Virus record (IMG/VR): IMGVR_UViG_3300037010_001286
Span: 18,149 to 82,148 of that record
Source: a virus
Length of the DNA: 64,000 bases
Reading direction: 5' to 3' (one strand)
The notes under the pieces were generated by a model. It saw only the letters and a list, made by a program, of their open reading frames with translations. It made no database searches and was not told where the DNA came from. Below, piece by piece: positions 2,829-64,000 of the stretch (position 1 is the first letter of the stretch; each line of letters begins with the position of its first letter). A program made the translations under genes and the position numbers.

Positions 2829-2997
2829 GTTAGAATATCAAAGGTTAGTTAAAGAAGTTCCACTGTCCAAAACTTGTTTGGATGTTGTAGTCATCCAGGA
2901 TAGATATATAAAACATCTTGAGGCTGTTAATGAAAATTATAGTAATACAATAATAAAATTACGTACTCAAGTTAAAAAACTAAAGGAAAACAAATGA
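2821..2997 (+). CDS. Small hypothetical protein (58 aa, not in ORF track)
   Basis: ATG 2821 to TGA 2997 fills the gap; ATGA overlap with the polymerase start. Confidence 0.6.
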   Translation: MDKLEYQRLVKEVPLSKTCLDVVVIQDRYIKHLEAVNENYSNTIIKLRTQVKKLKENK

Positions 2998-9009: not shown

Positions 9010-10422
9010 TTAGAATGAGTCCTCGAAAGGTAGACTCATCTGCTCTCCTTTAATTAAATCATAATTTAGTTTAAAAGATATTTCCCCATTCCCTGTAATA
9101 ATTTTATACTTATGTAAAGTTATAGAAAAGTCCTCTTTTACCTCTTTAGTAAGTATGAAATCAATGTTATAATATTGTGCCTTTGCTCTAAAGTACATGT
9201 AACACGAACTACATAACCCCTTCACATTAGTCTTTGTTATAGCACCACAACATTTACACATAAATACTCCTGCACCTGATACATCGGATATTCTACTTCT
9301 AACTATATTATCTCCTAACTTAATGTCAGTTACAGTTATAAATCGGTTATCTAAACCTTTATCAATAAAATCTTCATCAATATTACGATAGTATCTTTCT
9401 CCTGTACTAAGAACTAAACCAATAGGCATATAATCATCATCTAAAATATAGTCTGATACCTTTTCGACCCGGTTTTCAACTCTAAAAAGTACCTTTATTA
9501 GACCATTTGAGAACACTAATAGGTTATTCTCTAGGATTTTGGGAATTATTTGACTAAACTCATTAGCGTTATTTAAAAGGATATTTTGAGTGTGTCTAAT
9601 CTCGATATAGTTAAATTCACTCTCAGGAAAGTATTTTTTCATACTAAAATCAAAGTCAGATAAGTTTACATCAACATTCCCTCTATATAAGTTCAAAATA
9701 CTTTTATAATCTTTTGATAAACAAATAGGAACTAATTGCTTACCGTGTCTACGATTAGCTTTCTTACTAAATATAAATATACACCCAAAGTTATTATAGT
9801 GAAAGTTATTTATAAAGTAGTCACGTACAAGCTTATTAGATAGATTACTTTTAATGCTATTACCACGTTTAATGATATAGTATAGCTTAGACTTCTTACG
9901 ACAACTTTTAGGTATATTTACCAAAACTGCTGGAAATTTAGCATTAGAAAAATCGAAAGACCTTGAAATTCCTTCTAAATGTTCTTCCATATACTCATCT
10001 AAGTGGGTAGGGAGTTTTATATATGTACTAAATAATGTACTTAATTCATGTAAATTCTCAAGGGAATTTAATAAAAACTCAACACCAAGTTTTTCCATAA
10101 TAGACTTATTGAAAATAGAAGCTATAATTTGTTGATGATTTACGGACATTCTTTTAAGTTCTACCCTAGCAGCTGCTAAGTTATCTTCTTGTAACCAATA
10201 ATATACTTTTCCTATATTATCTAACAGAGGTAAATTTTCGGTATTCTTATTTGGAACAATACTTACATTAAATTTTATTGGGGAGTGGATAGTTAAGGAG
10301 ATGATAACCTCAAGTAACTCTTTATTCTCAGGGGAGGATTTATAAAATTCTATGAATTTCTTTGCCCCTAAGTTAGGCAAAGAGTTTTTAATTAATAGAA
10401 TTAGATTAGCAAGTTCATCCAT
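9010..10422 (-). CDS. Hypothetical protein; probable inactivated DNA-ligase-fold protein with a C-terminal Cys4 zinc finger
   Basis: N-terminus resembles the ligase DNA-binding domain; CKCC...CSSC; ends QMSLPFEDSF; overlaps the sigma gene stop. Confidence 0.55.
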   Translation of the reverse strand: MDELANLILLIKNSLPNLGAKKFIEFYKSSPENKELLEVIISLTIHSPIKFNVSIVPNKNTENLPLLDNIGKVYYWLQEDNLAAARVELKRMSVNHQQIIASIFNKSIMEKLGVEFLLNSLENLHELSTLFSTYIKLPTHLDEYMEEHLEGISRSFDFSNAKFPAVLVNIPKSCRKKSKLYYIIKRGNSIKSNLSNKLVRDYFINNFHYNNFGCIFIFSKKANRRHGKQLVPICLSKDYKSILNLYRGNVDVNLSDFDFSMKKYFPESEFNYIEIRHTQNILLNNANEFSQIIPKILENNLLVFSNGLIKVLFRVENRVEKVSDYILDDDYMPIGLVLSTGERYYRNIDEDFIDKGLDNRFITVTDIKLGDNIVRSRISDVSGAGVFMCKCCGAITKTNVKGLCSSCYMYFRAKAQYYNIDFILTKEVKEDFSITLHKYKIITGNGEISFKLNYDLIKGEQMSLPFEDSF

Positions 10423-10978
10423 CTTCGACCTCAAAATAATCTTTCATGTGGAGTAGGCAGGTAGTTATAATACGTTTAACTTTAGCACGACTAAAACCAA
10501 CTAACTCACTGATTTTAACTACACTATCCTGTAATATAAAATAATCGTACAGGATACGATGTTCTAATGGCGTTAAGCTTTCTAAATATGTAGAAAACTC
10601 TTCAGCACACTGTAAACGTACTATTTCATCATCTATATCACTTAAACTATGATCTACAAACTCTTCTTCTAAGAGACCAGCAGAAGTAAATGAATGCATC
10701 TCTCTATTAGATTGAACTGACCCAGGACGCACAGTAGAGCTTCCTTTAGGACTATTTCTACCAATATAATCTAAAATAGCACCGGAAACACGTCTATAAG
10801 CATACCCCATATAAAAATTATTCTTACTTTCCTCATATTTTTCTCGTGCTTTAACGTAGGCCAGTAAACCCTCTTGAACTAAATCATCTAGCTCTACATA
10901 GTAGTTAGAACGAAGAAAATACTTATAAGCAATCTTCTCTACAAATTCATAGTCTTTCTTTGGAATTTCTTCTATCAC
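10415..10978 (-). CDS. RNA polymerase sigma-70 family factor, FliA/sigma28-like
   Basis: Region 2 DDLVQEGLLAYVKAREKYE...YAYRRVSGAILDY; region 4 HTH ISELVGFSRAKVKRI. Confidence 0.88.
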   Translation of the reverse strand: MIEEIPKKDYEFVEKIAYKYFLRSNYYVELDDLVQEGLLAYVKAREKYEESKNNFYMGYAYRRVSGAILDYIGRNSPKGSSTVRPGSVQSNREMHSFTSAGLLEEEFVDHSLSDIDDEIVRLQCAEEFSTYLESLTPLEHRILYDYFILQDSVVKISELVGFSRAKVKRIITTCLLHMKDYFEVEDG

Positions 10979-12660
10979 TTTAGACCCCTTTGAGAGTTAA
11001 TTGAAGTTAAGCTAGTAACCCCTTTATCTTTTGTAAAAGTAATAACTGTATCAAACATATTTATAGGCAGTTCTTCATGGTGTGTTATTACATATACAGC
11101 CTTATTCTCACGTATAATCTCTAAGAACTTAGTAACCATACTAATACCCTCATCATCTAATACTCCAAACAGCTCGTCAATTACTAAGTAATTAGTAGAA
11201 ATACCTGTTACTTGCTCTAAAGTAAACAAGGTTGTAATTAGAAGAACTAGAGAAACTCTAGTACGCTCTCCCGCAGATAAATCATTAAATCCTTTTAAGA
11301 TACCTCTATCATAAAATTCATATTCTAACTTACCATTTTTAACAGATACTTTAATGTCGATTGTAAAATCAGTTTTATCTATTAGGTCTTTAAGCACAGT
11401 AACGAATACTTTTCTAAATTTATTAAGATACTCATTAGTAAGTGTTCCATTTTTTATAAAAAGTAAACACTCCTCAACTAATGCAAGTTTCTTATCTAAA
11501 GCATCCATGTCTGAAACAATATCACTTAATTCTTTTTCAATTTCATCCCGTTGTTTAACAATCTTGTCATATGCAGAGTTCTGCTCTGCAACTACCAGTA
11601 ATTTTGATTTTAAAATGTTAATTTTTCCTAAAATAGCAGCCTCATCATCAGCCAAACTTTGTTTTACTCTAGTACACTCATCGTCTAAGGTAGATATAGT
11701 AGAGGTAAGATTACTAATGAAATTTTCTTTTGTACTTTTTTCCTCTATTAATTTGGATAAATCAAGATTTAAAGTATCTTTATCAAGAGTCCCAACTGCC
11801 CCACAAGTAGGACAAATATTAGAAGAATTAATTAGCCTCTCTAACTCAACTATCTTATAGTTTATAAGAGATAACTCAGTATTTAAAGCACTACGCTCCT
11901 CTTTGAGTCCTACTATTTTAAGTCTCGTAGCCTCTACTCCAGCATGTTTAGGGCTACGAGTGACTGCTAAAAGAGACTTAGTTAGAGTATTAATATTTTC
12001 TTCTATTACTGTAACATTTACTTTCTGAAATGAACTAAGTAAGGAGATATTTTTCTCACAATTTCTCATCTTAGTTATTAGAATAACTCTAAGATTTTTA
12101 AGTTCTTTTCGCTCCTCTTTTAATATAGCCTCAGATTGCTGAATAGAGGCTATATTAAAAAATTGAAAAAGTATATTATCCTTATTTGTAGTATCCAAAA
12201 TTGCTTGGAGGGTACTTTGACTAATATAAGTCAAAGCAGAAAATGTATCAAAGTCTAACCCAAGTATATCTTTAATTTGTTTAAGTTGATTTGGAATACC
12301 TTTTACTGAAATATCTACTCCATTTTTAAGTACGGTAATTTTATTAGTATTTCTGTCATTTGTAACTGTATAGTTATCTTTTTCATTGAGAGTAAAATCT
12401 AAGCTAATACTATATGGTTTTCCAGTAATAGAATTATTTACACTCTCAATAGTACCTTTAGGGTTTTTAATATTCTTGTTAAATAGCCCTTGGTAAATAC
12501 TAGAAAAGGTAGCAGTCTTTCCTGAGCCATTAGAACTCTTAAAAGAACTTTCAATATCATTATTGATACCTATAATATAATGAAGCCCCTTCTCTACAGG
12601 TAAAGTAATACTACCAACTGAGAAGAAATTATTTACACTTATCTTTTTAATCTCTAACAT
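10975..12660 (-). CDS. SbcC/Rad50-like recombination ATPase (T5 D13 / T4 gp46-like)
   Basis: NGSGKT, coiled coil with CPTCG zinc hook, LSAGE signature, LVIDE, ITHH. Confidence 0.92.
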   Translation of the reverse strand: MLEIKKISVNNFFSVGSITLPVEKGLHYIIGINNDIESSFKSSNGSGKTATFSSIYQGLFNKNIKNPKGTIESVNNSITGKPYSISLDFTLNEKDNYTVTNDRNTNKITVLKNGVDISVKGIPNQLKQIKDILGLDFDTFSALTYISQSTLQAILDTTNKDNILFQFFNIASIQQSEAILKEERKELKNLRVILITKMRNCEKNISLLSSFQKVNVTVIEENINTLTKSLLAVTRSPKHAGVEATRLKIVGLKEERSALNTELSLINYKIVELERLINSSNICPTCGAVGTLDKDTLNLDLSKLIEEKSTKENFISNLTSTISTLDDECTRVKQSLADDEAAILGKINILKSKLLVVAEQNSAYDKIVKQRDEIEKELSDIVSDMDALDKKLALVEECLLFIKNGTLTNEYLNKFRKVFVTVLKDLIDKTDFTIDIKVSVKNGKLEYEFYDRGILKGFNDLSAGERTRVSLVLLITTLFTLEQVTGISTNYLVIDELFGVLDDEGISMVTKFLEIIRENKAVYVITHHEELPINMFDTVITFTKDKGVTSLTSINSQRGLK

Positions 12661-15588: not shown

Positions 15589-16500
15589 TTAATCCTTCAT
15601 TTTAAAAAATAATTTATCTACGGGAGATAAAGGACAAACCTTACTATACTCCTGTAAGAGTGTCATAGAAAACTCATCATAAGAGTTGCCTAAAGGTCTA
15701 GTAGAGAACTTTACCAAGAACTCTTTCTGTTCTTCTTCAGATAGATCAGCTAAGGTTACAGGCTTAAATAGCTTGTAGTTTAGCTCTATCATATCATCAT
15801 AACTAACAGACTCATCAGGAAGGCATATACCATTAGAGTTAGAGTCAAGAAGTCCTCTAATCTTAAATTTAAGGGTATTAAAGTCAGAATACTTAGGGTA
15901 AAGTCTAATAAAACTCTTAACCCCAAACTTGTGAAGTCCTTTTACATTTTCTTTAGCAGACCCTGCAAATACCTGTAGATAAAATACCCCTAAAGGGTCT
16001 ACCTCATATTCCTCTACACAATTTTTAGAAGTAATAAAACGATTACGTTTTACATTTAGCATTCTAATATTATCAGCAAATAGAAAACTAGCCCAGTCTT
16101 TATCTGAACTCAATAGAGTTACTGTGGTATCAGTATTAGCAAATCTACTAGCAATTATTGAGCCAACGTCATCTGCCTCAATACCACTAATATCAATAAC
16201 ATTACCAAAATAAGAAAGCCAAGGTATAGAATTTCGATATTCTTGTTCAAATATACGCTTTCTTTCTTGCTCTTGGGGAGTAGCTTTCTTATCATTCTCT
16301 TTTCTATGAGATTTATATGCTGGATATATTAGGGAGCGTTTTGTTTTACCTATATCAACTGCAAATACAATTTTAGAGGGTTTTACATTATTACTTCTAC
16401 ATATTCGGGAAATCTCAGAAAAAACACCTAGTAGTGGTCTATGATTGTGGTGTTGATTAAAACACATCAATTTATAGTCTATAACTAAAATTTCAGCCAC
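15589..16500 (-). CDS. 5'-3' exonuclease / flap endonuclease (T5 D15-like)
   Basis: YPAYKSHR, GIEADD, SSDKD, ENVKG; GGAGG RBS. Confidence 0.9.
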   Translation of the reverse strand: MAEILVIDYKLMCFNQHHNHRPLLGVFSEISRICRSNNVKPSKIVFAVDIGKTKRSLIYPAYKSHRKENDKKATPQEQERKRIFEQEYRNSIPWLSYFGNVIDISGIEADDVGSIIASRFANTDTTVTLLSSDKDWASFLFADNIRMLNVKRNRFITSKNCVEEYEVDPLGVFYLQVFAGSAKENVKGLHKFGVKSFIRLYPKYSDFNTLKFKIRGLLDSNSNGICLPDESVSYDDMIELNYKLFKPVTLADLSEEEQKEFLVKFSTRPLGNSYDEFSMTLLQEYSKVCPLSPVDKLFFKMKD

Positions 16501-16542
16501 TGTGTCCTCCTTAAAGTTGAAAAAGCATTATATAACCTATAA

Positions 16543-16610
16543 TCTTAAAGAAAACTGAAAGCCTATTTTACGAGGTTTCTTAGAGGTGTCCCAAGACCTA
16601 TTATTGTATT
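16543..16610. repeat. 68-bp direct repeat, copy 1 (copy 2 at 49489-49556)
   Basis: 65/68 identical to 49489-49556. Confidence 0.95.
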
Positions 16611-16692
16611 ACCCTCTAAGAACTTTAGAGAAATTTTCCTATAACTTTAAGGTTACTTTTAAGAAACTTTTTGTACAATATTACTTCTAAAT

Positions 16693-16853: not shown

Positions 16854-17936
16854 ATGAATGAGAGTAAATTTCTTCTTACTTACTTAGATAAGTATCATAA
16901 AATTCAATGTTCAAATATAAAAACAGATAAATATACCTTTAAAAAAGCAGAAGAGGCACTTGAATTTAACTTTATTAGATTTGGTAACTCTTATTTTATT
17001 CCAGCTATTTCAATTGATATTGATTTTAAATCTGATATTTACCGAATAATTTATGACAATAACCTACCTGAACCTACTTTCGTAGTTCATACAGACCGTG
17101 GAACTCATATTCACTGGTTTTTAGAAGTTCCTATTAGTACAGCTAATAAATTCCAGTTAAATTATCTTAATAATCTTATTAATTATCTTCAAGGTCTATT
17201 TGGTGGTGATAAATATGCAACTACTAGAAGTGCTGGGCGTATTTGGAGAAATCCTATTAAGTTCCCTCATATTTTTTCAGGAAATCTTGTATCTTTTTCT
17301 GAATTTACCCTCCCAAAAAAAGAAAAAGTCCAACAAATTGACACTCAATATACTAGCAGAAATAAGTATAAAAAAATTTTAAATATAGATTTTACTAGTG
17401 TTATAGAGGGAACTCGTCACCATACTCTTTTTGAGTATGGACGTGCCTATGCTTATACTACTGGTATAACTAACCCACATGCAGAGATTGAAGCTAAAAA
17501 TGCTTTAATGCCAAATCCATTATCAACTATAGAGGTTAAATCAATAGGTAACTCTATAGATAAATTTATGACTACAAAATATAAAAAGAGTACATACAAT
17601 AGCTCTCAAAAAACAGTAGAATTTAATAGAAAGATAGCTAAAGTACAATCTGATAAGAAACTTACTGAGATAGTTAATAAAATACTTATAAGTATTTCTC
17701 CTATAACTTTAGCAAAAAACCTAACAGCTCGTAAAGCTGCTAAGGTACTTAATATAAGTAAAAATACTTGGACAAAATATGCAAAAGTATTGATTAGTTC
17801 TATTAAAGAGTCCTTACTAACTATAAAAGCTCCATTAAGATACTTACCAATTTCTACTAATTTATACGTAGAAAGAAGTATACCTATGTATAATACTATA
17901 TATTCTAGCAGTATAGTACTAAATAATTCAACATAA
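16854..17936 (+). CDS. Plasmid-type replication initiator (ColE2/pAL5000-like Replicase primase domain + PriCT-1 + HTH)
   Basis: SIDID, LPEPTFVV, RGTHIHWFL, RNP, GTRHHTLFEY, NPLSTIEVKSIGNSI. Confidence 0.8.
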   Translation: MNESKFLLTYLDKYHKIQCSNIKTDKYTFKKAEEALEFNFIRFGNSYFIPAISIDIDFKSDIYRIIYDNNLPEPTFVVHTDRGTHIHWFLEVPISTANKFQLNYLNNLINYLQGLFGGDKYATTRSAGRIWRNPIKFPHIFSGNLVSFSEFTLPKKEKVQQIDTQYTSRNKYKKILNIDFTSVIEGTRHHTLFEYGRAYAYTTGITNPHAEIEAKNALMPNPLSTIEVKSIGNSIDKFMTTKYKKSTYNSSQKTVEFNRKIAKVQSDKKLTEIVNKILISISPITLAKNLTARKAAKVLNISKNTWTKYAKVLISSIKESLLTIKAPLRYLPISTNLYVERSIPMYNTIYSSSIVLNNST

Positions 17937-17983
17937 TCTATACTCAATTGTATATAAAATAATTTTAAGGTGGTATCTATAAA

Positions 17984-18457
17984 GTGGTATTTATTGGAAT
18001 TGACTCTTCTTCTACCAATACAGCAATTGTTGTATTAGATTATAATAGAAATTTACTTGAGTTTACTCTTATTTCCCCTACAAATAAAGATTTAAGAGTT
18101 AGAGGTGCAGAAACTGTATCTTCAGTCCTATCATTTATTCAAAAATTTTCTACAAAAAGCTCTCAGATTGTTATAGAAGCTCCTGCATTTATGGCTAATG
18201 GAAAAGTAGCAGATTTAAGTATGATTGTTGGTGGAATTTTTTATGGATTGATAGATATAGGATATGATTGTTTATTAATTCCCCCATCACAACATAAAAG
18301 TCGTTTTACTGGAAGAGGAAGGATTACAAAAGGTGATACTATACTTTGCCTACCTGAGAGTGTTTTAAATAGTTTTAAAGGTACTTATAAGAAACTTGAT
18401 GATTTAGCAGATGCTTACTCTCTAGCTACATACTTATTACCAGCTACTTCTATCTAA
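17984..18457 (+). CDS. RuvC-like Holliday junction resolvase
   Basis: IGIDSS, VIE, TGRGRITK, DDLADA. Confidence 0.88.
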   Translation: MVFIGIDSSSTNTAIVVLDYNRNLLEFTLISPTNKDLRVRGAETVSSVLSFIQKFSTKSSQIVIEAPAFMANGKVADLSMIVGGIFYGLIDIGYDCLLIPPSQHKSRFTGRGRITKGDTILCLPESVLNSFKGTYKKLDDLADAYSLATYLLPATSI

Positions 18458-18523
18458 TCTTTTTACTATAAATTACCTTAGAATGATTTGTAACAATTTG
18501 TTGGAATAATGGAGTATCTAACT

Positions 18524-52575: not shown

Positions 52576-53046
52576 ATGTTACTTGAAATTGTTTCAAAAA
52601 ACCAAATAGTAGACGGTATTTTACTTCCATTTTTTCCTGAAGCTATGGAAATGAATAAAAAGGTAGATCCAAGTTTTGATAGGATTCTATCACAGCTTAA
52701 TGATGCTTATACAGACTTCTTAATTAGTGAAACTCTAGAGGATAGATTTGAAGCTTTTGTTACTTATGGATTCTCATATCTACAGGGATTAGTTTATTTA
52801 GTACATTATCCCGATGATGATAAATTGGAATTGATGGAAGTACGAGCTACATACTTTACTGACTTGTTTATTATGTTTACTAAATTTATTGGAAGACGCC
52901 TAAATGAACAACAAGTAGGTCTTATTGGTAGTGTAATATCTATGGCTTTGGAGCAGTTTGCTATTTCTAAGTTGTCTAAGAGTACTGATGTTATTGAGTA
53001 TAACAATATTCTAAGTAATTTGTTTGCGAAGTTAGAGTCAGTATAA
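52576..53046 (+). CDS. Hypothetical protein
   Basis: AAGGAG RBS. Confidence 0.65.
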   Translation: MLLEIVSKNQIVDGILLPFFPEAMEMNKKVDPSFDRILSQLNDAYTDFLISETLEDRFEAFVTYGFSYLQGLVYLVHYPDDDKLELMEVRATYFTDLFIMFTKFIGRRLNEQQVGLIGSVISMALEQFAISKLSKSTDVIEYNNILSNLFAKLESV

Positions 53047-53285
53047 TGGATAAGGTGCTGAATTGCCAAGAGGCAGTCAGCCTCTTGGAAGACTATTTTT
53101 TAGGGACTACTCAGTCTGTATTATCAGGCAGATATGGTATTTCTGAAAAAGCAGTCTATAATATTCTATATCTTTTAACATACAAAGAATGTACTAAAGA
53201 ATTTGTATATAGATATGGTGGTGTTGCACCTTATCTAATAGAGCTGGCTAAACGTAAACAGCGTGGACTTGGTAGAGTTAAATGA
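53046..53285 (+). CDS. HTH DNA-binding protein
   Basis: TQSVLSGRYGISEKAVYNIL. Confidence 0.65.
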   Translation: MDKVLNCQEAVSLLEDYFLGTTQSVLSGRYGISEKAVYNILYLLTYKECTKEFVYRYGGVAPYLIELAKRKQRGLGRVK

Positions 53286-53578
53286 GAAAAATTGAGCTAC
53301 TTCTATTTGTAAGTAATGTACTTGCTAATCCAAATAATGAGGTATTAGTAGTGTATAATGAAAACAATATAATTACTCATATTTTTATTGCCTCTAACAC
53401 TGGAGATAAACTTCTAAGATTAGAAGGCCCTTTCAAAAATTTAGATGAAGTACTAAATTTTATAAGAAATATTAAAGCAACTCCAAACTTTGATATATAT
53501 CTACAGTTTACTTTTGTAGAGTCTCCTGATAGCATTAAGATTTACAATAGTATTTGTAAGATAAAATACTTTAGTTAA
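53282..53578 (+). CDS. Hypothetical protein
   Basis: ATGA overlap. Confidence 0.6.
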   Translation: MRKIELLLFVSNVLANPNNEVLVVYNENNIITHIFIASNTGDKLLRLEGPFKNLDEVLNFIRNIKATPNFDIYLQFTFVESPDSIKIYNSICKIKYFS

Positions 53579-53599
53579 AAATTTATTTAAAGGTTGAAC

Positions 53600-54604
53600 A
53601 TGTCCCTACTACCTATTGAGACCCCTAACCCACTATTTGGTAAGTATTTATACCCCTCTGCTAAAGCATTGATGGAGCAACAACAAGATATTGCTTGGTT
53701 TGCTCAAGAGATTAAAGTTGAAAATGATATACATGACTATCTACATAATATGTCAAAAGATAGTTATAATTTAGTTACTGTAACTCTTACTAACTTTGTT
53801 GAAATAGAACAAAGTGTAGGAGAAATATGGGATACTATTAGTACTTGGTTTCCACACTCTGAGATTGATGGTGCTTGTAAACAAATAGCTGCTATGGAGA
53901 AGTCTGTACATGCTTTCTTTTATCAAAAGATGTCAGATACTCTTAATATTGATCCTGAGGATACTGCAAAAGTACAACAAGATGTTGCTGCAATCAAAAA
54001 TAAACTTGACTATGTTAAGTCAATTACTAAAAATTTATCAAAAAATAAATTATTATCATTAGCTATGGTATCAATGATAGAACAGGTACTTCTATTTAGT
54101 AACTTTGCTATGTTAAAATCTTTTAAAGCTAACGGTCATAAGTTAATACCTAATACTCTGACTGGTGTTGATTATGTTGTAAATGATGAGGTACTCCACG
54201 GAGTATTTGCGGCTTACTTACATAATACTTATATTGAGGAATATAAAGAACTTCACGGTTATTTTAATCATGATAAACATAATAAAGACCTTAAAGAATT
54301 AACAGAGTCAATTGTATCTTATGAAGATGCTATTATTGATTATACTTTCCAAGCAAACTTGCCTATTAATGATATTACTGCAAGTCAGTTGAAGGCTTTT
54401 ATTCGCTCACGGGCTAATCTAGTTCTAGTTGATTTAGGATGTGAACCTTTATACCAAATTGTGGATAATCCAATTGCTGATTGGTTTTATAAAGGAGCTA
54501 ATTCTATAAAATTACATGATTTCTTTTCGGCAGGTAGTAATCAATATAAAAGAAGCTGGTCTTTATCAGCATTTTCAAGAAAACCATATTTAGAGGTAAA
54601 ATAA
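53600..54604 (+). CDS. nrdB: Ribonucleotide reductase class I beta subunit
   Basis: W..QEI, E...H...Y, DEVLH, DFF C-terminus. Confidence 0.9.
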   Translation: MSLLPIETPNPLFGKYLYPSAKALMEQQQDIAWFAQEIKVENDIHDYLHNMSKDSYNLVTVTLTNFVEIEQSVGEIWDTISTWFPHSEIDGACKQIAAMEKSVHAFFYQKMSDTLNIDPEDTAKVQQDVAAIKNKLDYVKSITKNLSKNKLLSLAMVSMIEQVLLFSNFAMLKSFKANGHKLIPNTLTGVDYVVNDEVLHGVFAAYLHNTYIEEYKELHGYFNHDKHNKDLKELTESIVSYEDAIIDYTFQANLPINDITASQLKAFIRSRANLVLVDLGCEPLYQIVDNPIADWFYKGANSIKLHDFFSAGSNQYKRSWSLSAFSRKPYLEVK

Positions 54605-56331
54605 TGAGTAATACAAAATATGAAAGATTATCACATAAAAGAAAACAACTACAAAATGATGGATTAGCACCATCCTGGCTTAGTACTGCTGGTTACCAAT
54701 TGTTAGTAAATCAAAACTACTTAGATACTGCAGAGACCCCAAAAGATATGTATACTAGGATTGCTAAACGTGCAGCAGAACTAACTAAGTTTGAAATTCC
54801 TAAAGACTTTGGCTATGATACATGGTTTGACTGCTTTTTTGATGTAATGTGGAAAGGGTGGTTATCTCCTTCTACTCCTGTACTAACAAATATGGGAAAT
54901 AACCGTGGACATCCTATATCATGTTCGGGGACCTACGTTGGTGACTCTATTGCTTCCTTTTATGAAGCAAGAAAAGAGATGGCACAACTTACTCAACGTG
55001 GTTATGGTACTTCTACTTGCTTAGATCCAATACGCCCAAGAGGTAGTGCAATTTCTAGTGGTGGTACTGCAAATGGTATTATGCAATTTGCTAAAGGTGT
55101 AGTTGCAGATATGGAGGATGTGTCTCAAGGTAATTCTCGTAGAGGCAGCTGTGGTCAATATTTAAACCCTCTACATGATGATTTTGAAGAACTTGCAAAT
55201 CAGATTATTGCTAATGATATGGGATGGAATATTGGTTGGAATATAACTGATGAGTTTGAAGAGTTATTTCAACGAGACTTTGACTTAGCTGATACTATTT
55301 GGTGTAAACTACTTAAAACTAAAGCTACAAAAGGTAAAGGATATTTCTTTTTTGTTGATAAAGTAAATAGACATCGACCCCAAGTCTATATTGATAAAGG
55401 CTTTAAGGTAAGACACTCTAATTTATGTGGAGAAATTACGTTGATGTCAGATGAAGAACACTCATTTACTTGTGTATTATCTTCTGTAAATATTGCAAAC
55501 TATGATGAGTGGAGAGATACAAAGTTATTTCAAATAAGTACTATTTTCCTTGATGCTATTATTGAGGATATGCTGATTAAGGCCAAACAAGAAAAAGGAT
55601 TTGAGCGTATTGTTGCCTTTACTGAGAAGTCAAGAGCACAAGGACTTGGTGTATTAGGTTTATCTACTTATTACCAAAAGAAATCATGGGCATTTGGTGA
55701 TTTTAGTTCTATTCAATTTAATCAGATGTTTTTTAAGGAAATGAATAAGGAAACTCTTAAAGCTTCTAAGATGTTAGCTAAAGAACTTGGAGAACCTGAG
55801 TGGATGGTTGGATATGGTGAACGTTGTTCTCATCGTATAGCTCTACCTCCTACTAAATCTACCTCTATTATTCAAGGTGGGGTTAGTGAAGGTATTCAAC
55901 CTGTATATGCTAATGTATTTGAGCAAGATACTGCTGGTGGCACTGTATATCGTATTAATCCAGTTCTTTTGGATATTATGAAAGAACGTGATATGTATAC
56001 TGAGGAAGTTATGAGACGTATTGCTGAGGACCAGGGTTCGGTACAAGGAGAAGATTGGCTTACAGACCATGAAAAAGCTGTATTCAGAACTGCTTTTGAA
56101 GTATCTCAAGAGTCTATCCTTTTAATGGCTGCTCATAGACAGCGGGAAGTAGACCAAGGACAGTCTGTTAATCTCTTCTTTACTGCTGACGAGACTGAGG
56201 AAGAAATAGCAAGAATCCATGATATTGCTTTTAAAGACCCTTATATTCATAGTTTATACTATCTACAATCTCAGAATAAAGCTATGAAACATAAGATTGA
56301 TAAAGATGAGTGTTTGTCCTGCCATTCTTGA
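54604..56331 (+). CDS. nrdA: Ribonucleotide reductase class I alpha subunit (no ATP cone)
   Basis: STPVLTN, PISC, SNLCGEI, PTKSTS, DQGQSVN, SLYY, C-terminal CLSC. Confidence 0.95.
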   Translation: MSNTKYERLSHKRKQLQNDGLAPSWLSTAGYQLLVNQNYLDTAETPKDMYTRIAKRAAELTKFEIPKDFGYDTWFDCFFDVMWKGWLSPSTPVLTNMGNNRGHPISCSGTYVGDSIASFYEARKEMAQLTQRGYGTSTCLDPIRPRGSAISSGGTANGIMQFAKGVVADMEDVSQGNSRRGSCGQYLNPLHDDFEELANQIIANDMGWNIGWNITDEFEELFQRDFDLADTIWCKLLKTKATKGKGYFFFVDKVNRHRPQVYIDKGFKVRHSNLCGEITLMSDEEHSFTCVLSSVNIANYDEWRDTKLFQISTIFLDAIIEDMLIKAKQEKGFERIVAFTEKSRAQGLGVLGLSTYYQKKSWAFGDFSSIQFNQMFFKEMNKETLKASKMLAKELGEPEWMVGYGERCSHRIALPPTKSTSIIQGGVSEGIQPVYANVFEQDTAGGTVYRINPVLLDIMKERDMYTEEVMRRIAEDQGSVQGEDWLTDHEKAVFRTAFEVSQESILLMAAHRQREVDQGQSVNLFFTADETEEEIARIHDIAFKDPYIHSLYYLQSQNKAMKHKIDKDECLSCHS

Positions 56332-59213: not shown

Positions 59214-60506
59214 ATGGCATACAAAATATTAACTCTAATAAAAGAAACTAAAGGAACTCTTGCAAAAGAGGAAATTCTTCATAAAGAAAAGGATAATACG
59301 GATTTAAAGGATTTATTATTTCTTACTTTTAACCCCTTTTTAAACTTTGGTATTAAAAATTTAAAGCTAACCAAATCTTCTGCAACAAATCCCAAAGACT
59401 TTCACAAAAAATTTATGGATATTGCAAAATTTCTATCAGAAAACTCAATTAATGCTGAGCATCTAAGAAATACTATAAATTTCCTTGAGCAGTTAGAGAA
59501 AGAAACTCAAGACATATATACTGCTGTAATTACAAAAAGTTTGTCTATCGGATTAGCTGCAAAATCTATAAATAAAATTATCCCTGGTCTAATACCAACA
59601 TTTGAGTGTATGTTAGCAGAACCTACAATGGGCACTTCAGAGTTTCCAGTAATTGTGCAAGAGAAATTAGATGGAGTAAGATGTATTATGGTAAAAAAAG
59701 AAGGTAAAGTAACCTTTTATACTCGTCAAGGTAATACAATTCCCCTATTATTATTATCTAAACGTATTTCAGAACTTCCACATGATAACTTTATACTGGA
59801 TGGGGAGCTTTTACTAAAAGGAACTGATAGAAAAAATACATCAGGTAAGATAAATTCTTTAATGAAGAGTGGTTATAATAAAGAAATTGATGAGTTAGTA
59901 GAATATTACATATTTGATTTTATGTCTCTTGAGGAGTGGGAGTCAAAATCGTCGCGGTTTACTAATTTTAATAGAACTGGAGAAGTATTGGGATTAGTAA
60001 ACATACTAGGAGAGCCTTTCTTCATTCCAAAACAGACAATTGCTTATGCTGAAGAGGATATTCATAGATTTTATAAAGAGATTAGGGCTAATTTAGGAGA
60101 GGGAGTTATCATTAAAACAGATACTCCTTATGAGTGGAAGAGAAGTAAGAGCTGGACAAAGATGAAAGCTATTTGTATGACAACTCTACAGATTATTGAT
60201 TTTGTAGAAGGTAAGGGTAAACACGCAGGAAAGGTAGGAGCAATTACTTGTAAATCAGCAGACGGACTGGTTACAGTAAATGTTAATCCGAAAACTGATG
60301 AAATACGTCAATATATTACTGAAAATCAGAAAAAATTACGATATTCGCTAATAGAAGTTCTATTTAATGAGTTAATTAGTGATAAATCGGGTGGTTATAG
60401 TCTATTCCTACCAAGAATGGCTGATAATTGGCAAAGATTTGATAAAACTCATCCTGATACCCTTGAAGATATTAAAAAAGAGGTGTTATCTACTGTAAAT
60501 CAATAA
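59214..60506 (+). CDS. ATP-dependent DNA ligase
   Basis: EKLDGVR, LDGEL, YIFD, EGVIIK, KMK, LFLPR...RFDK. Confidence 0.95.
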   Translation: MAYKILTLIKETKGTLAKEEILHKEKDNTDLKDLLFLTFNPFLNFGIKNLKLTKSSATNPKDFHKKFMDIAKFLSENSINAEHLRNTINFLEQLEKETQDIYTAVITKSLSIGLAAKSINKIIPGLIPTFECMLAEPTMGTSEFPVIVQEKLDGVRCIMVKKEGKVTFYTRQGNTIPLLLLSKRISELPHDNFILDGELLLKGTDRKNTSGKINSLMKSGYNKEIDELVEYYIFDFMSLEEWESKSSRFTNFNRTGEVLGLVNILGEPFFIPKQTIAYAEEDIHRFYKEIRANLGEGVIIKTDTPYEWKRSKSWTKMKAICMTTLQIIDFVEGKGKHAGKVGAITCKSADGLVTVNVNPKTDEIRQYITENQKKLRYSLIEVLFNELISDKSGGYSLFLPRMADNWQRFDKTHPDTLEDIKKEVLSTVNQ

Positions 60507-60780
60507 AATATGCCAAAATATACTGTTTTAGTGTATTTTTGCCTAAAATAATCAAAAAATCAATAAAAATTGCTTATTTTAATGGTTTTTTGCTAAAAAT
60601 TATATAAAATAGTTGATTTTTATCAATAAATAGGCTAATTTTTGATAAATTTGTGATAAAATCATCACAAAATACACTTAATTATACACTAAAAAGATAG
60701 TATATACTATTATTTTAATATATAATTAAGATTATATGAACTATAATATGTAGTTATTTTACTAAATAAAAAGGAAATTT

Positions 60781-61404
60781 ATGAGTCAAAATGTTAATAT
60801 CATAGCAGTGCCTATTGTAACAATTAAAGAGGAGTTATTAGGTACTACTGCAACTCCTGTAAATTCTGTTGAAGAGATTTCTAAGTTTCTTGAAGATGCT
60901 GAGTTCGCATTACGAAGTAATCTAGAAAAAGACTTTGCTTGGAAGCAAGTAATCCCTTATGTAGTAGTACGAGATATTGAGACTGGTGATGTATTAACTT
61001 ATACTCGTTCTACTAATGGTGGGGAAGATAGATTGCATAATAAAAAATCAGTTGGTATTGGTGGTCATATTGATGAAACTGAAGATACACAAGAGTTATC
61101 TAATTATGACTTACTTGTTAGTAGTATGGTTCGAGAGGTTAGAGAGGAGTTAGGACTAAACACTACTCCTGATAATTTTAAGCTACTAGGTATTATTAAT
61201 GATGATACTGATGAAGTAGGGCAGGTTCATATTGGTATTGTTTATGAGCTTATAATTGGTGCACGTAAGTATAATCTTAATAGTGGAGAGCAGGATATTC
61301 TTATTGAGCGTAGTTGGGAAAGTATTGAATCATTAAAAGCTATTGATAACTTAGAGGCTTGGTCTATTCTAGCCCTAGATTTAGTAACTAATAGTGTGTC
61401 TTAG
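60781..61404 (+). CDS. Nudix hydrolase (COG4112-like)
   Basis: KQVIPY, GEDRLH, GIGGHI, REVREELG, VHIG. Confidence 0.88.
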   Translation: MSQNVNIIAVPIVTIKEELLGTTATPVNSVEEISKFLEDAEFALRSNLEKDFAWKQVIPYVVVRDIETGDVLTYTRSTNGGEDRLHNKKSVGIGGHIDETEDTQELSNYDLLVSSMVREVREELGLNTTPDNFKLLGIINDDTDEVGQVHIGIVYELIIGARKYNLNSGEQDILIERSWESIESLKAIDNLEAWSILALDLVTNSVS

Positions 61405-61422
61405 AGTTAAAAATAAAATCTA

Positions 61423-61662
61423 ATGAAAAATGATAAGAAATCTTATCCAAAATTGGTTATGACCTCAAAGTTATCTTGTGATGTTTTTATAGATACAGTA
61501 AGGTGTGCTACTATTACTGTTAATGAAGATGGATTACATCCTCAACTTGATATAACATTTGTAGGTAGTTTCAATGACTTTGAGCTTCTACGTTTTATGA
61601 TTGAAGAAGCTTATTCAGAACTTTATAAATCAGCTACCAATAAGCTTGATTTAGATTATTAA
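61423..61662 (+). CDS. Hypothetical protein
   Basis: ORF in the operon direction. Confidence 0.5.
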   Translation: MKNDKKSYPKLVMTSKLSCDVFIDTVRCATITVNEDGLHPQLDITFVGSFNDFELLRFMIEEAYSELYKSATNKLDLDY

Positions 61663-61747
61663 TAATACTTTTAATAATACTGTGATAGCAGTATTTATAT
61701 CTAAAATGAAGTGTTTTTAGTATAAAAAACTAAGATCGCAATATTTT

Positions 61748-61755
61748 ACGATAAT
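61748..61755 (+). promoter_or_regulatory. Putative late promoter -10 (ACGATAAT)
   Basis: Same motif as before the structural genes, here preceding a non-coding structured region. Confidence 0.55.
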
Positions 61756-62241
61756 TGGTACAGTCCATGTGGGACTGCAGACCAAACATGAATTTACCTT
61801 TAAGAGCTTATCTGAAGGTATTTTCCTGGTAGGTGCTTTCTTGTATGAATATCTTATTCAGCCTCTGAAGTCGTTTAAGGGGTTGATAGGGTATTTATTC
61901 GACAGTTTAGAAACGAACTATAGTTATGTATCTGAGCCTTTTAAGGCTGTGTAGGGTACCATGAAGATAACTAGCTGATTACGATAAGCTTATCTTCCTA
62001 AGACTTATCGAAGCACAAATATTTACCTGAAATCTTGGCATAAAGAATTTGGAAGTATAGTTTAGTAACAAATGGAGCTACTATAAATCACAAGCTCAAT
62101 TCCATCAAAGTACCTATTAATCATGTTACCCCTGAGTATTTGGGTATAACATGAAATCTTTGATGGCTATAAAGAAACTTACTAAGTAGTGTAAAACAGT
62201 GATTCCGACTTTATGGGTCATTCTATTATGGGGCAGTACCA
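61756..62241 (+). ncRNA. Large structured non-coding RNA of unknown class (~490 nt)
   Basis: About 10 stems with G-U pairs on the + strand, complementary ends, candidate long-range pseudoknots, no credible ORF. Confidence 0.7.
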
Positions 62242-62323
62242 TAAGTTTCTACCATCTTTCCTAATCCTTCAGCAAACTCTTATATTTTTTCTTATATACT
62301 TTCCTAAATACAAAGGAGAGTCT

Positions 62324-62701
62324 ATGGCACATAATAAAGATCTAGCGGATAAACAACGTGTTTCAAAGTTAGACAGAGAAATTATTGATAAACTTCATAT
62401 CCTACGTGAGCTTATTGAGGCTAATACAAAGCATCTTATGAGTCTTATGAAGAATAATGTCTCTACAATGGAGAAATTATCTACAGAAGAGTTTACCAAA
62501 ACAATTCAAACAAATTATAAAGTTTGGATTGAGAATGAAAAGCTACTTCAAAAACTTTGGAAATTTAGTGGTGATGAGGGGTATATCCGAACCTGGTATT
62601 TTCCAGCTTGTTCTTGTCCTAAAATGGACAATGATGATGCTTGGCCGCATGGCCCTTATATTAAAAGTAAATCTTGTATAATTCACGGTTGGGAGGAATA
62701 A
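62324..62701 (+). CDS. Phage protein with CxC...CxxH motif
   Basis: ATG after AAGGAG; LQKLWKF...CSCPKMDN...CIIHG. Confidence 0.75.
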   Translation: MAHNKDLADKQRVSKLDREIIDKLHILRELIEANTKHLMSLMKNNVSTMEKLSTEEFTKTIQTNYKVWIENEKLLQKLWKFSGDEGYIRTWYFPACSCPKMDNDDAWPHGPYIKSKSCIIHGWEE

Positions 62702-62704
62702 TAA

Positions 62705-62860
62705 ATGGATATGGAACATATGTTTCTTGTTGGATTAGCAGTTGCCTTAGGAGTATTGGTTGCTCCTTATGTTTTTAGCCTACTTCTTATTGTATTTTTA
62801 AGTATATTCGTTGTTGTAGCTACGGCTATAGCTGCAGTAGTAAAGTTTGTATCAAAATGA
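62705..62860 (+). CDS. Small membrane protein (51 aa, not in ORF track)
   Basis: GGAGG RBS; highly hydrophobic. Confidence 0.65.
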   Translation: MDMEHMFLVGLAVALGVLVAPYVFSLLLIVFLSIFVVVATAIAAVVKFVSK

Positions 62861-63078
62861 GAACATATACCTTTGGTAGAGCTTTCTACTTAATGAAGTA
62901 TGGCGGTAAGATTTGTAAGTCAACTCGTACATCTTATAGAATCATTAATGATACCATTTGGGAATTTAATGATTCTTTAAATTCTTGGGTAATATGTCTA
63001 CATATTTACTCTGATGAGGTTATGGGTAGCTGGGAGGAGGTTCATCAATGTCCAAAAATTCCTGCGAAACATTCTTGA
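62857..63078 (+). CDS. Hypothetical protein
   Basis: ATGA overlap; TFGRAFYLMKYGGK...WEEV pattern. Confidence 0.65.
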   Translation: MRTYTFGRAFYLMKYGGKICKSTRTSYRIINDTIWEFNDSLNSWVICLHIYSDEVMGSWEEVHQCPKIPAKHS

Positions 63079-63212
63079 TAGAGCTATTAGTAGTTCTACT
63101 TATTTTTGTTTGTACTTTGCTGATGCCTCAAACACTACCTGTATTACTTATAGAGTTGATAAGTTTAGTTGGACTAATTCTTATGCTTGTAGGTTGTACA
63201 TTTAGAGATTAG
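63048..63212 (+). CDS. Small membrane protein (54 aa, not in ORF track)
   Basis: GGAGGAGG RBS; two hydrophobic segments. Confidence 0.5.
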   Translation: MSKNSCETFLIELLVVLLIFVCTLLMPQTLPVLLIELISLVGLILMLVGCTFRD

Positions 63213-63310
63213 CTTTTACAGATATAGAAATTATGTGGTGAAGATATAGCTGCTGTTATCTTCAAAACTACTAGTAAAGCAGTATTATTAATTCAAATAA
63301 TGGAGAACAT

Positions 63311-63463
63311 ATGAGAGCAATAACTGGATTTATTCTATTGGTATCTTGGGTAGCAGGATTTGTAATTGCAAAAGGTTTTTGGAGTACAGTATTTTGTATA
63401 ATCCCTTTGTGGTCTTGGTACTTAGTTGTAGAGAAACTTCTAATATCCTTCAAGTTAATTTGA
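63311..63463 (+). CDS. Small membrane protein (50 aa, not in ORF track)
   Basis: GGAG RBS; WVAGFVIAKGFWSTVFCIIPLWSWYLVVEK. Confidence 0.7.
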   Translation: MRAITGFILLVSWVAGFVIAKGFWSTVFCIIPLWSWYLVVEKLLISFKLI

Positions 63464-63483
63464 GGCTTAGGTCAGATACCCTT

Positions 63484-63507
63484 TCACTCCCTTAATGTCG
63501 GGAGTGA
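63484..63507 (+). terminator. Hairpin at the end of the rightward operon
   Basis: tcactccc-N8-gggagtga followed by a T-run. Confidence 0.55.
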
Positions 63508-63873
63508 CCCTATAATTATTTTTTTTTTATTAAAGTTCCTTTTTAGATTGCTATAATACATTTTTAGATTATGATAGTACCCTCCAATAACCTCCGAGTT
63601 CCTTTTATGTCGGGAGTGTAACTTTCAAAAATTTCGTAATTTCCACCCTGCGACTCCAACGACCTTAAACGAAACTTAAACCCCCCTTTAAACCCCCTTA
63701 AAAAGCCCCCTAAAAGTAACACACGATAACAGCCTCTAACATATCTCCCCGTGTGTGTGTAGGATAGTAACACGAGATTAACTTTATATTCATTTTAGAT
63801 TACATTTAAGGTTCTTTTAAGTAACTGTGTAGTATTTATTAATTCCTTATAAGGTGCGCGTATGTATCCCGTG

Positions 63874-64000
63874 ATAACTTTTTATCCTTGACACGTTTAC
63901 CTTGTTTCACTATACTGTCATTCAGTTAAGCGGAGGGAGTGAAAAGTTATATCATATAACTTTTTATCCTTGACACGTTTACCTTGTTTCACTATACTGT
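63874..64000 (+). repeat. Tandem 45-bp repeat (82-bp period), each copy a TTGACA-17-TATACT promoter
   Basis: Identical copies at 63874-63918 and 63956-64000; the second is cut by the window edge. Confidence 0.9.

Follow-up and report, generated by a model that had tools for sequence, protein, structure and literature searches.

A structured RNA shared by two related phages, outside the Rfam families and next to a tRNA gene in one of them

Introduction

The RNAs ROOL, GOLLD and T4 RNAC and RNAD, found near the transfer RNA (tRNA) genes of phages, are a long-standing puzzle, as none of them has a known function. ROOL is about 580 nucleotides (nt) long, GOLLD has a conserved 3' domain, and T4 RNAC and RNAD are about 120-140 nt. 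In this study we describe a further structured RNA, encoded on the + strand at positions 61802-62101 of a 64,000-nt stretch of IMG/VR virus record IMGVR_UViG_3300037010_001286; this whole stretch is referred to as the window and all coordinates are those of the window unless otherwise stated. ROOL and GOLLD are encoded by phages and prophages and often lie near tRNA islands, GOLLD sometimes containing tRNAs itself (bioRxiv 10.1101/2024.12.08.627333). They have multi-helix folds with pseudoknots, neither a protein partner nor a function is known for them, and many GOLLD members exceed 800 nt (bioRxiv 10.1101/2024.12.08.627333). RNAC and RNAD are non-tRNA RNAs from the tRNA region of T4, with biological roles described as unknown (PMC3014915).

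The window spans bases 18149-82148 of an 82,148-bp record with direct terminal repeats, the exact repeat measuring 116 bp on the record, and the stretch is also found in two microbial-mat metagenome runs from two studies, one of them perhaps its origin. Relatives of this phage (G000 in the comparisons) were picked through the large terminase, which gave seven IMG/VR records (G001-G007) with identities of 71-88%. One of these, G002 (89,672 bp, terminase 74% identical), carries a homologue of the RNA, and another, G007 (terminase 71% identical), a part of it. In common with ROOL and GOLLD, the G002 homologue lies 31 nt from a tRNA at a tRNA-island position, but the RNA differs from both in matching no Rfam model and in the length of its conserved unit, 226-300 nt, which is about half that of ROOL and a third that of GOLLD at their usual sizes. 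The order of elements in G002, with a tRNA-like element, the conserved core and then a tRNA, suggests co-transcription and processing similar to those of T4 RNAC and RNAD, although the T4 RNAs are shorter, the RNA of this phage lies outside the tRNA cluster and the comparison is one of descriptions only. Group I introns, RNase P RNA and transfer-messenger RNA (tmRNA) have a similar size range and multi-helix folds with long-range pairings, but here there is no Rfam match, no interrupted host gene and no tmRNA called by ARAGORN. In its context the RNA resembles ROOL, GOLLD and T4 RNAC and RNAD, and it belongs to none of them.

Results

A conserved core within a gap without genes

An initial annotation of the window had pointed to a gap of about 660 bp without a credible gene and placed a structured RNA of about 490 nt in it, at 61756-62241. 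The gap measures 661 nt (61663-62323), between a 79-amino acid (aa) open reading frame (ORF; 61423-61662) and a gene for a 125-aa protein (62324-62701). Its sole ORF of at least 40 aa is a 61-aa ORF with a GTG start (61769-61954), for which no protein support was found. The G+C (GC) content of the region is coding-like at 0.34-0.37, that of an AT-rich spacer at 60500-60800 being 0.155-0.18.

When the gap sequence was compared by BLAST with the records of the terminase relatives, there was one clear match, to G002, in two blocks (61992-62101, 80% identical over 110 nt, E 4.7e-23; and 61855-61918, 81% over 64 nt). The conserved core, delimited by BLAST, alignment A5 and model R1, runs on the + strand from AAGAGCUU (61802) to ACAAGCUCAAUU (62101). 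It is 300 nt long in this phage and 226 nt in G002, the difference being made up in alignment A5 by a stretch of about 36 nt present only in the window and by a hairpin, P4, that is 43 nt longer. The two phages differ in 58 of the 226 aligned columns, and the score of G002 with model R1 is 288.5 bits. The closing helix P1 (GAGCUU/AAGCUC) marks both limits of the homology. The flanks at 61663-61801 and 62102-62323 have no homology to G002, as 457 of 500 shuffles of the 5' flank and 108 of 500 of the 3' flank align as well. Translated comparison (tblastx) of the 2.6-3 kb around the two loci found no common protein, and gave matches in all frames of the core.

The proposed extent of about 490 nt must therefore be reduced to that of the conserved unit. 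The stems described in the initial annotation are present at their places, including one between its two ends (tggtac at 61756-61761 with gtacca at 62236-62241), cagtcc/ggactg, ccatcaaag/ctttgatgg and cgataag/cttatcg, the last in palindrome I14. The stem joining the two ends and the 3' hairpins lie in the flanks without G002 homology and gained no comparative support. The 5' leader (61756-61801, +), in which the minimum free energy (MFE) structure forms the cagtcc/ggactg hairpin at 61761-61777, and the 3' part (62102-62241, +), with a long hairpin at 62102-62166, are specific to the window and not conserved; G002 has a tRNA-Arg at the position of the latter.

Secondary structure and compensatory changes

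RNAalifold predicted 66 pairs in eight helices from the two sequences, with 15 pairs changed on both sides, 8 changed on one side and none broken. By arithmetic from these pair counts, 38 of the 58 differences fall in pairs and keep the pairing. If the partners are slid by 1-3 columns, one double change is left and 32-49% of cells are paired; if the 3' letters are re-dealt among partners, 7.6 +/- 2.0 double changes result and none of 500 shuffles reaches 15. Because the structure came from the two sequences being counted, a further control was made in which the 226 ungapped columns were shuffled 300 times and RNAalifold re-predicted each time. This gave 3.5 +/- 1.7 double changes (maximum 9) against the 15 observed, none of the 300 being as high, and an energy of -17.8 +/- 3.7 (minimum -29.0) against -48.3. 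Compensatory changes of the kind expected of a structured RNA go beyond the controls in the two sequences, and for helix P2 a third sequence adds to the comparison. Each sequence contains 9 G-U pairs, and RNAalifold gives -45.7 on the + strand and -29.3 on the reverse complement; from the G-U pairs and this asymmetry it follows that the signal is that of a + strand RNA and not of duplex DNA.

The closing helix P1 is formed by GAGCUU (61804-61809, +) and AAGCUC (62092-62097, +) and is invariant in both phages; the consensus includes four of its pairs, the single-sequence MFE structure six. It is followed by the stretch of about 36 nt that is a gap in the G002 row of alignment A5 (61810-61844, +), where the MFE structure places an extra hairpin at roughly 61814-61840. 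P2 (61845-61898, +) is a long hairpin of 21 pairs with a bulged U and G-U pairs, of which three pairs are double-changed relative to G002, and it contains the invariant sequence AUUCAGC...GUUGAUAGRGU. P3 (61905-61918, +) is a small hairpin, GUUU/GAAC, whose four invariant pairs neither support nor oppose it. The variable-length hairpin P4 (61921-61973, +), which carries the 43-nt extension in this phage, has UAGUU/AACUA here and CAACC/GGUUG in G002, so that four of its five pairs are double-changed. P5 (GCU/AGC) and P6 (cgataag/cttatcg, loop UCUUCC) together occupy 61974-62014 (+), P6 having 11 pairs with six double-changed and none broken. Eight pairs form P7 (62027-62052, +), three with compatible changes on one side, around an invariant loop GGCAUA, and ten form P8 (62056-62085, +; UAUAGU...ACUAUA), two of them double-changed. 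A variant contig in metagenome run X2 has, among the matches listed, 61932 C>U, 61933 U>C and 61959 C>U, each keeping a pair of the P4 extension, and this is a weak additional line of evidence for that extension.

The comparison with G002 backs three helices that had been recognised in the initial annotation, namely the G-U-rich hairpin at 61846-61897, tagttat/ataacta and cgataag/cttatcg. Its long-range pairings did not hold up as well. The pseudoknot aactata/tatagtt would have three of its seven pairs broken in G002, as read by eye from alignment A5, and its rival, P8, covaries; gaagtcg/cgacttt has no counterpart in G002 by eye, and the local partner CGAC at 61900 is preferred; taggtgc/gtaccta found no comparative support; and in gtgctt/aagcac the gtgctt strand lies within the 36-nt stretch that G002 lacks. 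A different candidate pseudoknot can be read from the sequences, in which the P2 loop GUCG (61870-61873, +) would pair with CGAC (61900-61903) over only 4 bp. The same place offers UCGA/UCGA in G002 and, in G007, CUUUGAC with GUCAAAG, seven Watson-Crick pairs (positions 11245-11251 and 11285-11291 of locus L155). The P2-loop pairing is a candidate pseudoknot, and its 4-bp versions could have arisen by chance.

Stability of the fold

The + strand of 61756-62241 folds with an MFE of -134 kcal/mol, compared with -112.4 +/- 6.2 for shuffled sequences (z-score (z) -3.50, 0 of 100 as good); for the - strand z is -1.96, with 3 of 100 shuffles as good. Together with the covariation with G002, this bears out the structured + strand non-coding RNA that had been proposed for the gap. 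The whole 82-kb genome was also scanned in about 337 segments of 486 nt at a step of 243, with energies regressed on GC, and the 486-nt segment starting at 61557 ranks first on the + strand. The core, 61802-62101, folded alone has a z of -2.74 (0 of 200 shuffles as good), and its MFE structure independently yields P1 (6 bp), P2, P4, P6, P7 and P8. The sequence 3' of it, 62098-62323, folds with a z of -2.31 (3 of 200 as good).

Searches for known families and further members

Nothing in the whole window reached the gathering score of an Rfam 15 family, in agreement with the expectation that the RNA belongs to none. At E <=10, 61500-62500 gave ten chance-level matches only (small nucleolar RNAs, microRNAs and similar), with ROOL, GOLLD, group I, group II, RNase P and tmRNA all without a match, so that the loose resemblance to group I P3/P7 topology and to the 3' tract of RNase P noted in the initial annotation has no support from either family model. 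A group I intron was also rejected as a candidate on other grounds: the flanking ORFs are complete and mutually unrelated, and only the core is common to the two loci. ARAGORN found no tRNA or tmRNA in the 64-kb window. No match to the RNA was found among GenBank phages, and literature searches, covering the main texts of a limited library, returned no earlier description of it. Sequence shuffling, covariation, the fate of the 61-aa ORF and the Rfam search had been named at the outset as ways in which the RNA could be refuted or lose its novelty, and all came out in its favour.

Model R1, run over 98 loci (448 kb), gave one further match, to a P2-like hairpin in the right arm of G007, which sits inside a 467-nt ORF-free gap at 11108-11574 of L155 (G007:C1:70000-83427). 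In the three-way alignment of P2 there are 21 pairs, of which 8 are double-changed, with three cells broken, and AUUCAGC...GUUGAUAGRGU is invariant. With model R2, built on P2 alone, a single copy was found in each of G000, G002 and G007 (3 of the 12 records) and none in the other nine, most of them fragments. Hairpin P2 is all that this third phage keeps of the RNA. In the G007 gap there are also a hairpin with the canonical T-arm sequence CAGGTTCGAATCCTG, which matches no tRNA model, and a domain that GUGAAGCG/CGCUUCCAC closes. It may be that the G007 gap is a diverged relative of the whole RNA.

Other searches were negative. Model R1 found nothing in G007:1-20000. In the initial 18 kb of the genome studied here, where the tRNA island and a further candidate RNA are located, it gave no more than noise (<=13.4 bits). 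From IMG/VR, two conserved-motif patterns retrieved G002 and nothing else; an 18-mer scan of IMG/VR gave 6 matches, of which one extends to just 19 nt and the rest show nothing beyond the E 0.01 significance level by BLAST. The core-motif scan of species genome contigs and a scan for terminase relatives each gave 0.

Promoter and transcription unit

The promoter-like motif ACGATAAT, a member of the ACGAT(A/T)AT set, occupies 61748-61755 (+), ending one base before 61756 and 47 nt upstream of P1. The genome has 15 copies of ACGATWAT, where 200 Markov-type shuffles gave 4.5 +/- 2.1 (maximum 10), and as read from ORF coordinates several copies occupy short gaps before ORFs of the structural module. 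The phage encodes a sigma factor at 10415-10978 (-), identified by PHROG 351 (E 4.4e-15) and Pfam Sigma70_r2 (43.6 bits). The sigma factor and the over-represented motif before structural genes together look like a phage-specific promoter set. The initial annotation had taken ACGATAAT for a late-type promoter just ahead of the RNA, and this is a reasonable reading of the sequence, the promoter activity being presumed. Co-transcription of the RNA with the 125-aa gene is likely, because no terminator-like site is predicted between them.

tRNA context in the two phages

In G002, tRNA-Arg(CCU) lies 31 nt downstream of the core on the same strand, and the locus is flanked by homologues of the genes at genome positions 10117-10446 and 16267-16629 of this phage. 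The corresponding interval in this phage is its tRNA island, with tRNA-Met, tRNA-Arg(UCU) and tRNA-Leu. Here the RNA is found 1.3 kb beyond the DNA ligase gene, in the variable right arm of the genome, where synteny with G002, G003, G004, G006 and G007 stops at DNA ligase and nothing to the right of it is common. G003, G004, G006 and G007 carry tRNA-Met in the same variable right arm. From the island position in G002 and the tRNA-Met of the relatives' right arm it appears that the cassette occupies tRNA slots, different ones with different neighbours. The RNA is thus beside a phage tRNA cluster and on its strand in G002, and is not so placed in this window.

Upstream of the core in G002, on the minus strand of L151 (G002:C1:66000-85000) at about 9700-10060, there is a relatively GC-rich, well-folding RNA of about 350 nt. 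The promoter before it, TTGACT-17-TATAAT, is of the sigma-70 type with 11 of 12 matches. Between this RNA and the core is an element, as read from the sequence, that combines an acceptor-like stem of 7 bp with a hairpin resembling a T-arm and that no tRNA finder calls. The whole 691-nt unit of G002 folds with a z of -3.73 (20 shuffles).

Discussion

Nature of the RNA

We are confident that the core is, in one form or another, an RNA element whose fold is truly conserved. The conservation between two phages that differ at about a quarter of the aligned positions, the pattern of base pairing, the strand on which it is found and the absence of coding all point in that direction. The case also illustrates that a divergence of about 26% between just two sequences can be enough for a strong covariation signal. 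Several results nevertheless weigh against this interpretation or against its extension to a stand-alone RNA. There are only two full sequences and one partial one, and the pairs were counted on the very two sequences from which the consensus structure had been obtained, so that the counts lean in favour of that structure. For P1, P3 and P5, which are invariant, covariation gives no support; in the 691-nt MFE structure of G002, P1 competes with an upstream pairing, and when the G002 core is folded by itself its stability is ordinary (z -1.01, with 28 of 200 shuffles folding as well). Of the 11 other records searched with model R1, of which many are fragments, 10 gave no match, and no additional member came from scanning IMG/VR and 185,579 species genomes for motifs. 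No tRNA adjoins the RNA in this phage, nor did ARAGORN find one elsewhere in the 64-kb window. Also, with no terminator-like site predicted between the core and the 125-aa gene, the RNA could be a long leader.

Our preferred interpretation, which we hold to be somewhat better than even, is that the RNA is structured and non-coding, stands alone, is probably processed, acts in trans and belongs to a family outside Rfam. By analogy with ROOL, GOLLD and T4 RNAC and RNAD, it would be transcribed, processed and active in trans as a stable folded RNA. The sequence at 61802-62101 (+) would be the gene for an RNA that folds as a junction closed by the short helix P1, from which P2, the variable-length P4, and P3, P5/P6, P7 and P8 radiate, and the loop of P2 probably pairs with the bases immediately 3' of that helix. 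Such an RNA would be an accessory cassette of the sort that phages keep in and around tRNA islands. In G002, where a promoter of the sigma-70 type precedes the core and a tRNA-like minihelix and tRNA-Arg(CCU) flank it, the ends of the RNA could be cut by tRNA-processing enzymes. In this phage the cassette is placed behind ACGATAAT, a type of promoter that may be attributed to the phage's own sigma factor, and the RNA is probably transcribed jointly with the next gene. Its target can be guessed to be tRNA, translation or host defence.

Alternative explanations

The suggestion that the region is a decayed or unrecognised coding sequence, either the 61-aa ORF or a broken gene, draws on the coding-like GC of the region, the existence of that ORF in the gap and a length difference from G002 that, at 36 nt, is a multiple of three. 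We regard it as very improbable. The 61-aa ORF (61769-61954, +) begins with GTG, is not preceded by a Shine-Dalgarno sequence and meets stops in all frames of G002; no homologue of it, nor the sequence itself, was found in a protein set of 5.8 billion clusters, it has no Pfam match, and it was rejected as a gene. A 30-aa minus-strand ORF over the best-conserved block had 0 matches among 1.84 billion representatives. The homologous 241-nt stretch of G002 has at least three stops in each of the six frames, the three codon positions have similar numbers of differences (10, 9 and 7, out of 32 for each), and tblastx matches in all frames are what nucleotide-level conservation would produce. An origin as a selfish or recombination-prone module, such as the remnant of an intron-like mobile element or a site that acts as DNA in replication origin, packaging or recombination, has more in its favour and is still improbable in our judgement. 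G000 and G002 have the core at different places in the genome and between unrelated flanks; in metagenome runs X1 and X2 the contigs of this phage break at about 62030-62057, and other contigs join at about 62005-62058 to unrelated sequence; and inserts of about 0.9-1 kb in the ribonucleotide reductase and DNA polymerase A genes of G002 suggest that mobile elements are active in the clade. Against this, 58 differences in 226 columns with every pair kept indicate selection on the fold rather than recent transfer, while the G-U pairs and strand asymmetry oppose a duplex-DNA site. In addition, neither group I nor group II is matched at E <=10 and no gene is interrupted, no endonuclease or integrase adjoins the RNA, and there is a single copy per genome.

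It is less easy to dismiss the view that the core acts in cis, as part of a long 5' untranslated region controlling the stability, processing or translation of the 125-aa gene here and of tRNA-Arg in G002, although we think this unlikely. No terminator-like site separates the core from the 125-aa gene in this phage or the promoter from the tRNA in G002, and relatives of the 125-aa gene in other phages have long, well-folding gaps upstream (L083, z -4.07; L084, z -2.01). However, the gaps upstream of these relatives (IMG/VR loci L081-L085) have no sequence in common with the core and no match to model R1. The downstream partner also varies, being a tRNA in G002, and the 125-aa gene is found in 0 of the 7 relatives G001-G007, from which it follows that gene and RNA are not linked. 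As the neighbours of the RNA change from phage to phage, it is not the leader of one particular gene. Homology stops sharply at P1, 220 nt before the start codon, and the ribosome-binding region therefore lies outside the conserved unit. For these reasons we prefer the stand-alone RNA to the leader.

Implications

We propose a new structured RNA family of two to three known members. A more far-reaching proposal is that a new class of phage 'tRNA-island' RNAs begins with this one, as a pseudoknotted, compact cassette that passes between the variable regions of related phages, is released by tRNA-processing enzymes and acts in trans during infection. Its roles might then include binding of tRNAs or of the translation machinery, acting as a decoy for a host defence that targets tRNA, or self-assembly as in ROOL and GOLLD, which form multimeric cages made of RNA alone. 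This proposal is speculative, and we would give it only slightly more weight than the leader. As it moves among the tRNA slots of related phages, the RNA may be functionally linked to the set of accessory genes for tRNA and translation. If ROOL and GOLLD are joined in the same niche by a third, unrelated and much smaller fold with clear boundaries, this would be an easier object for probing, cryo-electron microscopy and genetics. The practical impact is modest for now, the family being tiny and the phages uncultured.

Neighbouring genes and other structured regions

The gene downstream of the RNA (62324-62701, +) is preceded by AAAGGAGAG and encodes a 125-aa Cys/His protein of PHROG 16704 (unknown function). 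It has invariant C96, C98, C118 and H121 and a motif CxCPKMDNDD, belongs to a family that occurs across many unrelated phages, and is probably a small zinc-binding protein. Its closest relatives, P0002-P0007, are 54-72% identical, and in a search of metagenome contigs the relatives were at most 51% identical among the matches listed. Gene and RNA are both part of a hypervariable arm, 60507-64000 of the window, that extends from the right of DNA ligase to the terminal repeat and is unshared with the five relatives examined.

Some other regions that came to light may also be of interest. An unrelated gap at L083:2931-3328, homologous to L081:2803-3168, has a predicted fold with a z of -4.07, which none of 100 shuffles equals, and in which distant parts form a helix of about 17 bp; on this basis it may be another structured RNA. 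In G002, interruptions of about 0.9-1 kb are found at 10810-11675 of L156 (G002:C1:1-16000) and at 17527-18514 of the reverse complement of L151, in the homologues of two genes of this phage, those for the large subunit of ribonucleotide reductase (window 54604-56331) and for DNA polymerase A (window 2994-5567); introns or inteins may account for the interruptions. In the scan of the whole genome, the second-best folding region on the + strand of the window is at 52809-53538 (GC-corrected z -2.6 to -2.7), made up in part of a small ORF kept in relatives (53046-53285) and with a gap at about 53286-53593.

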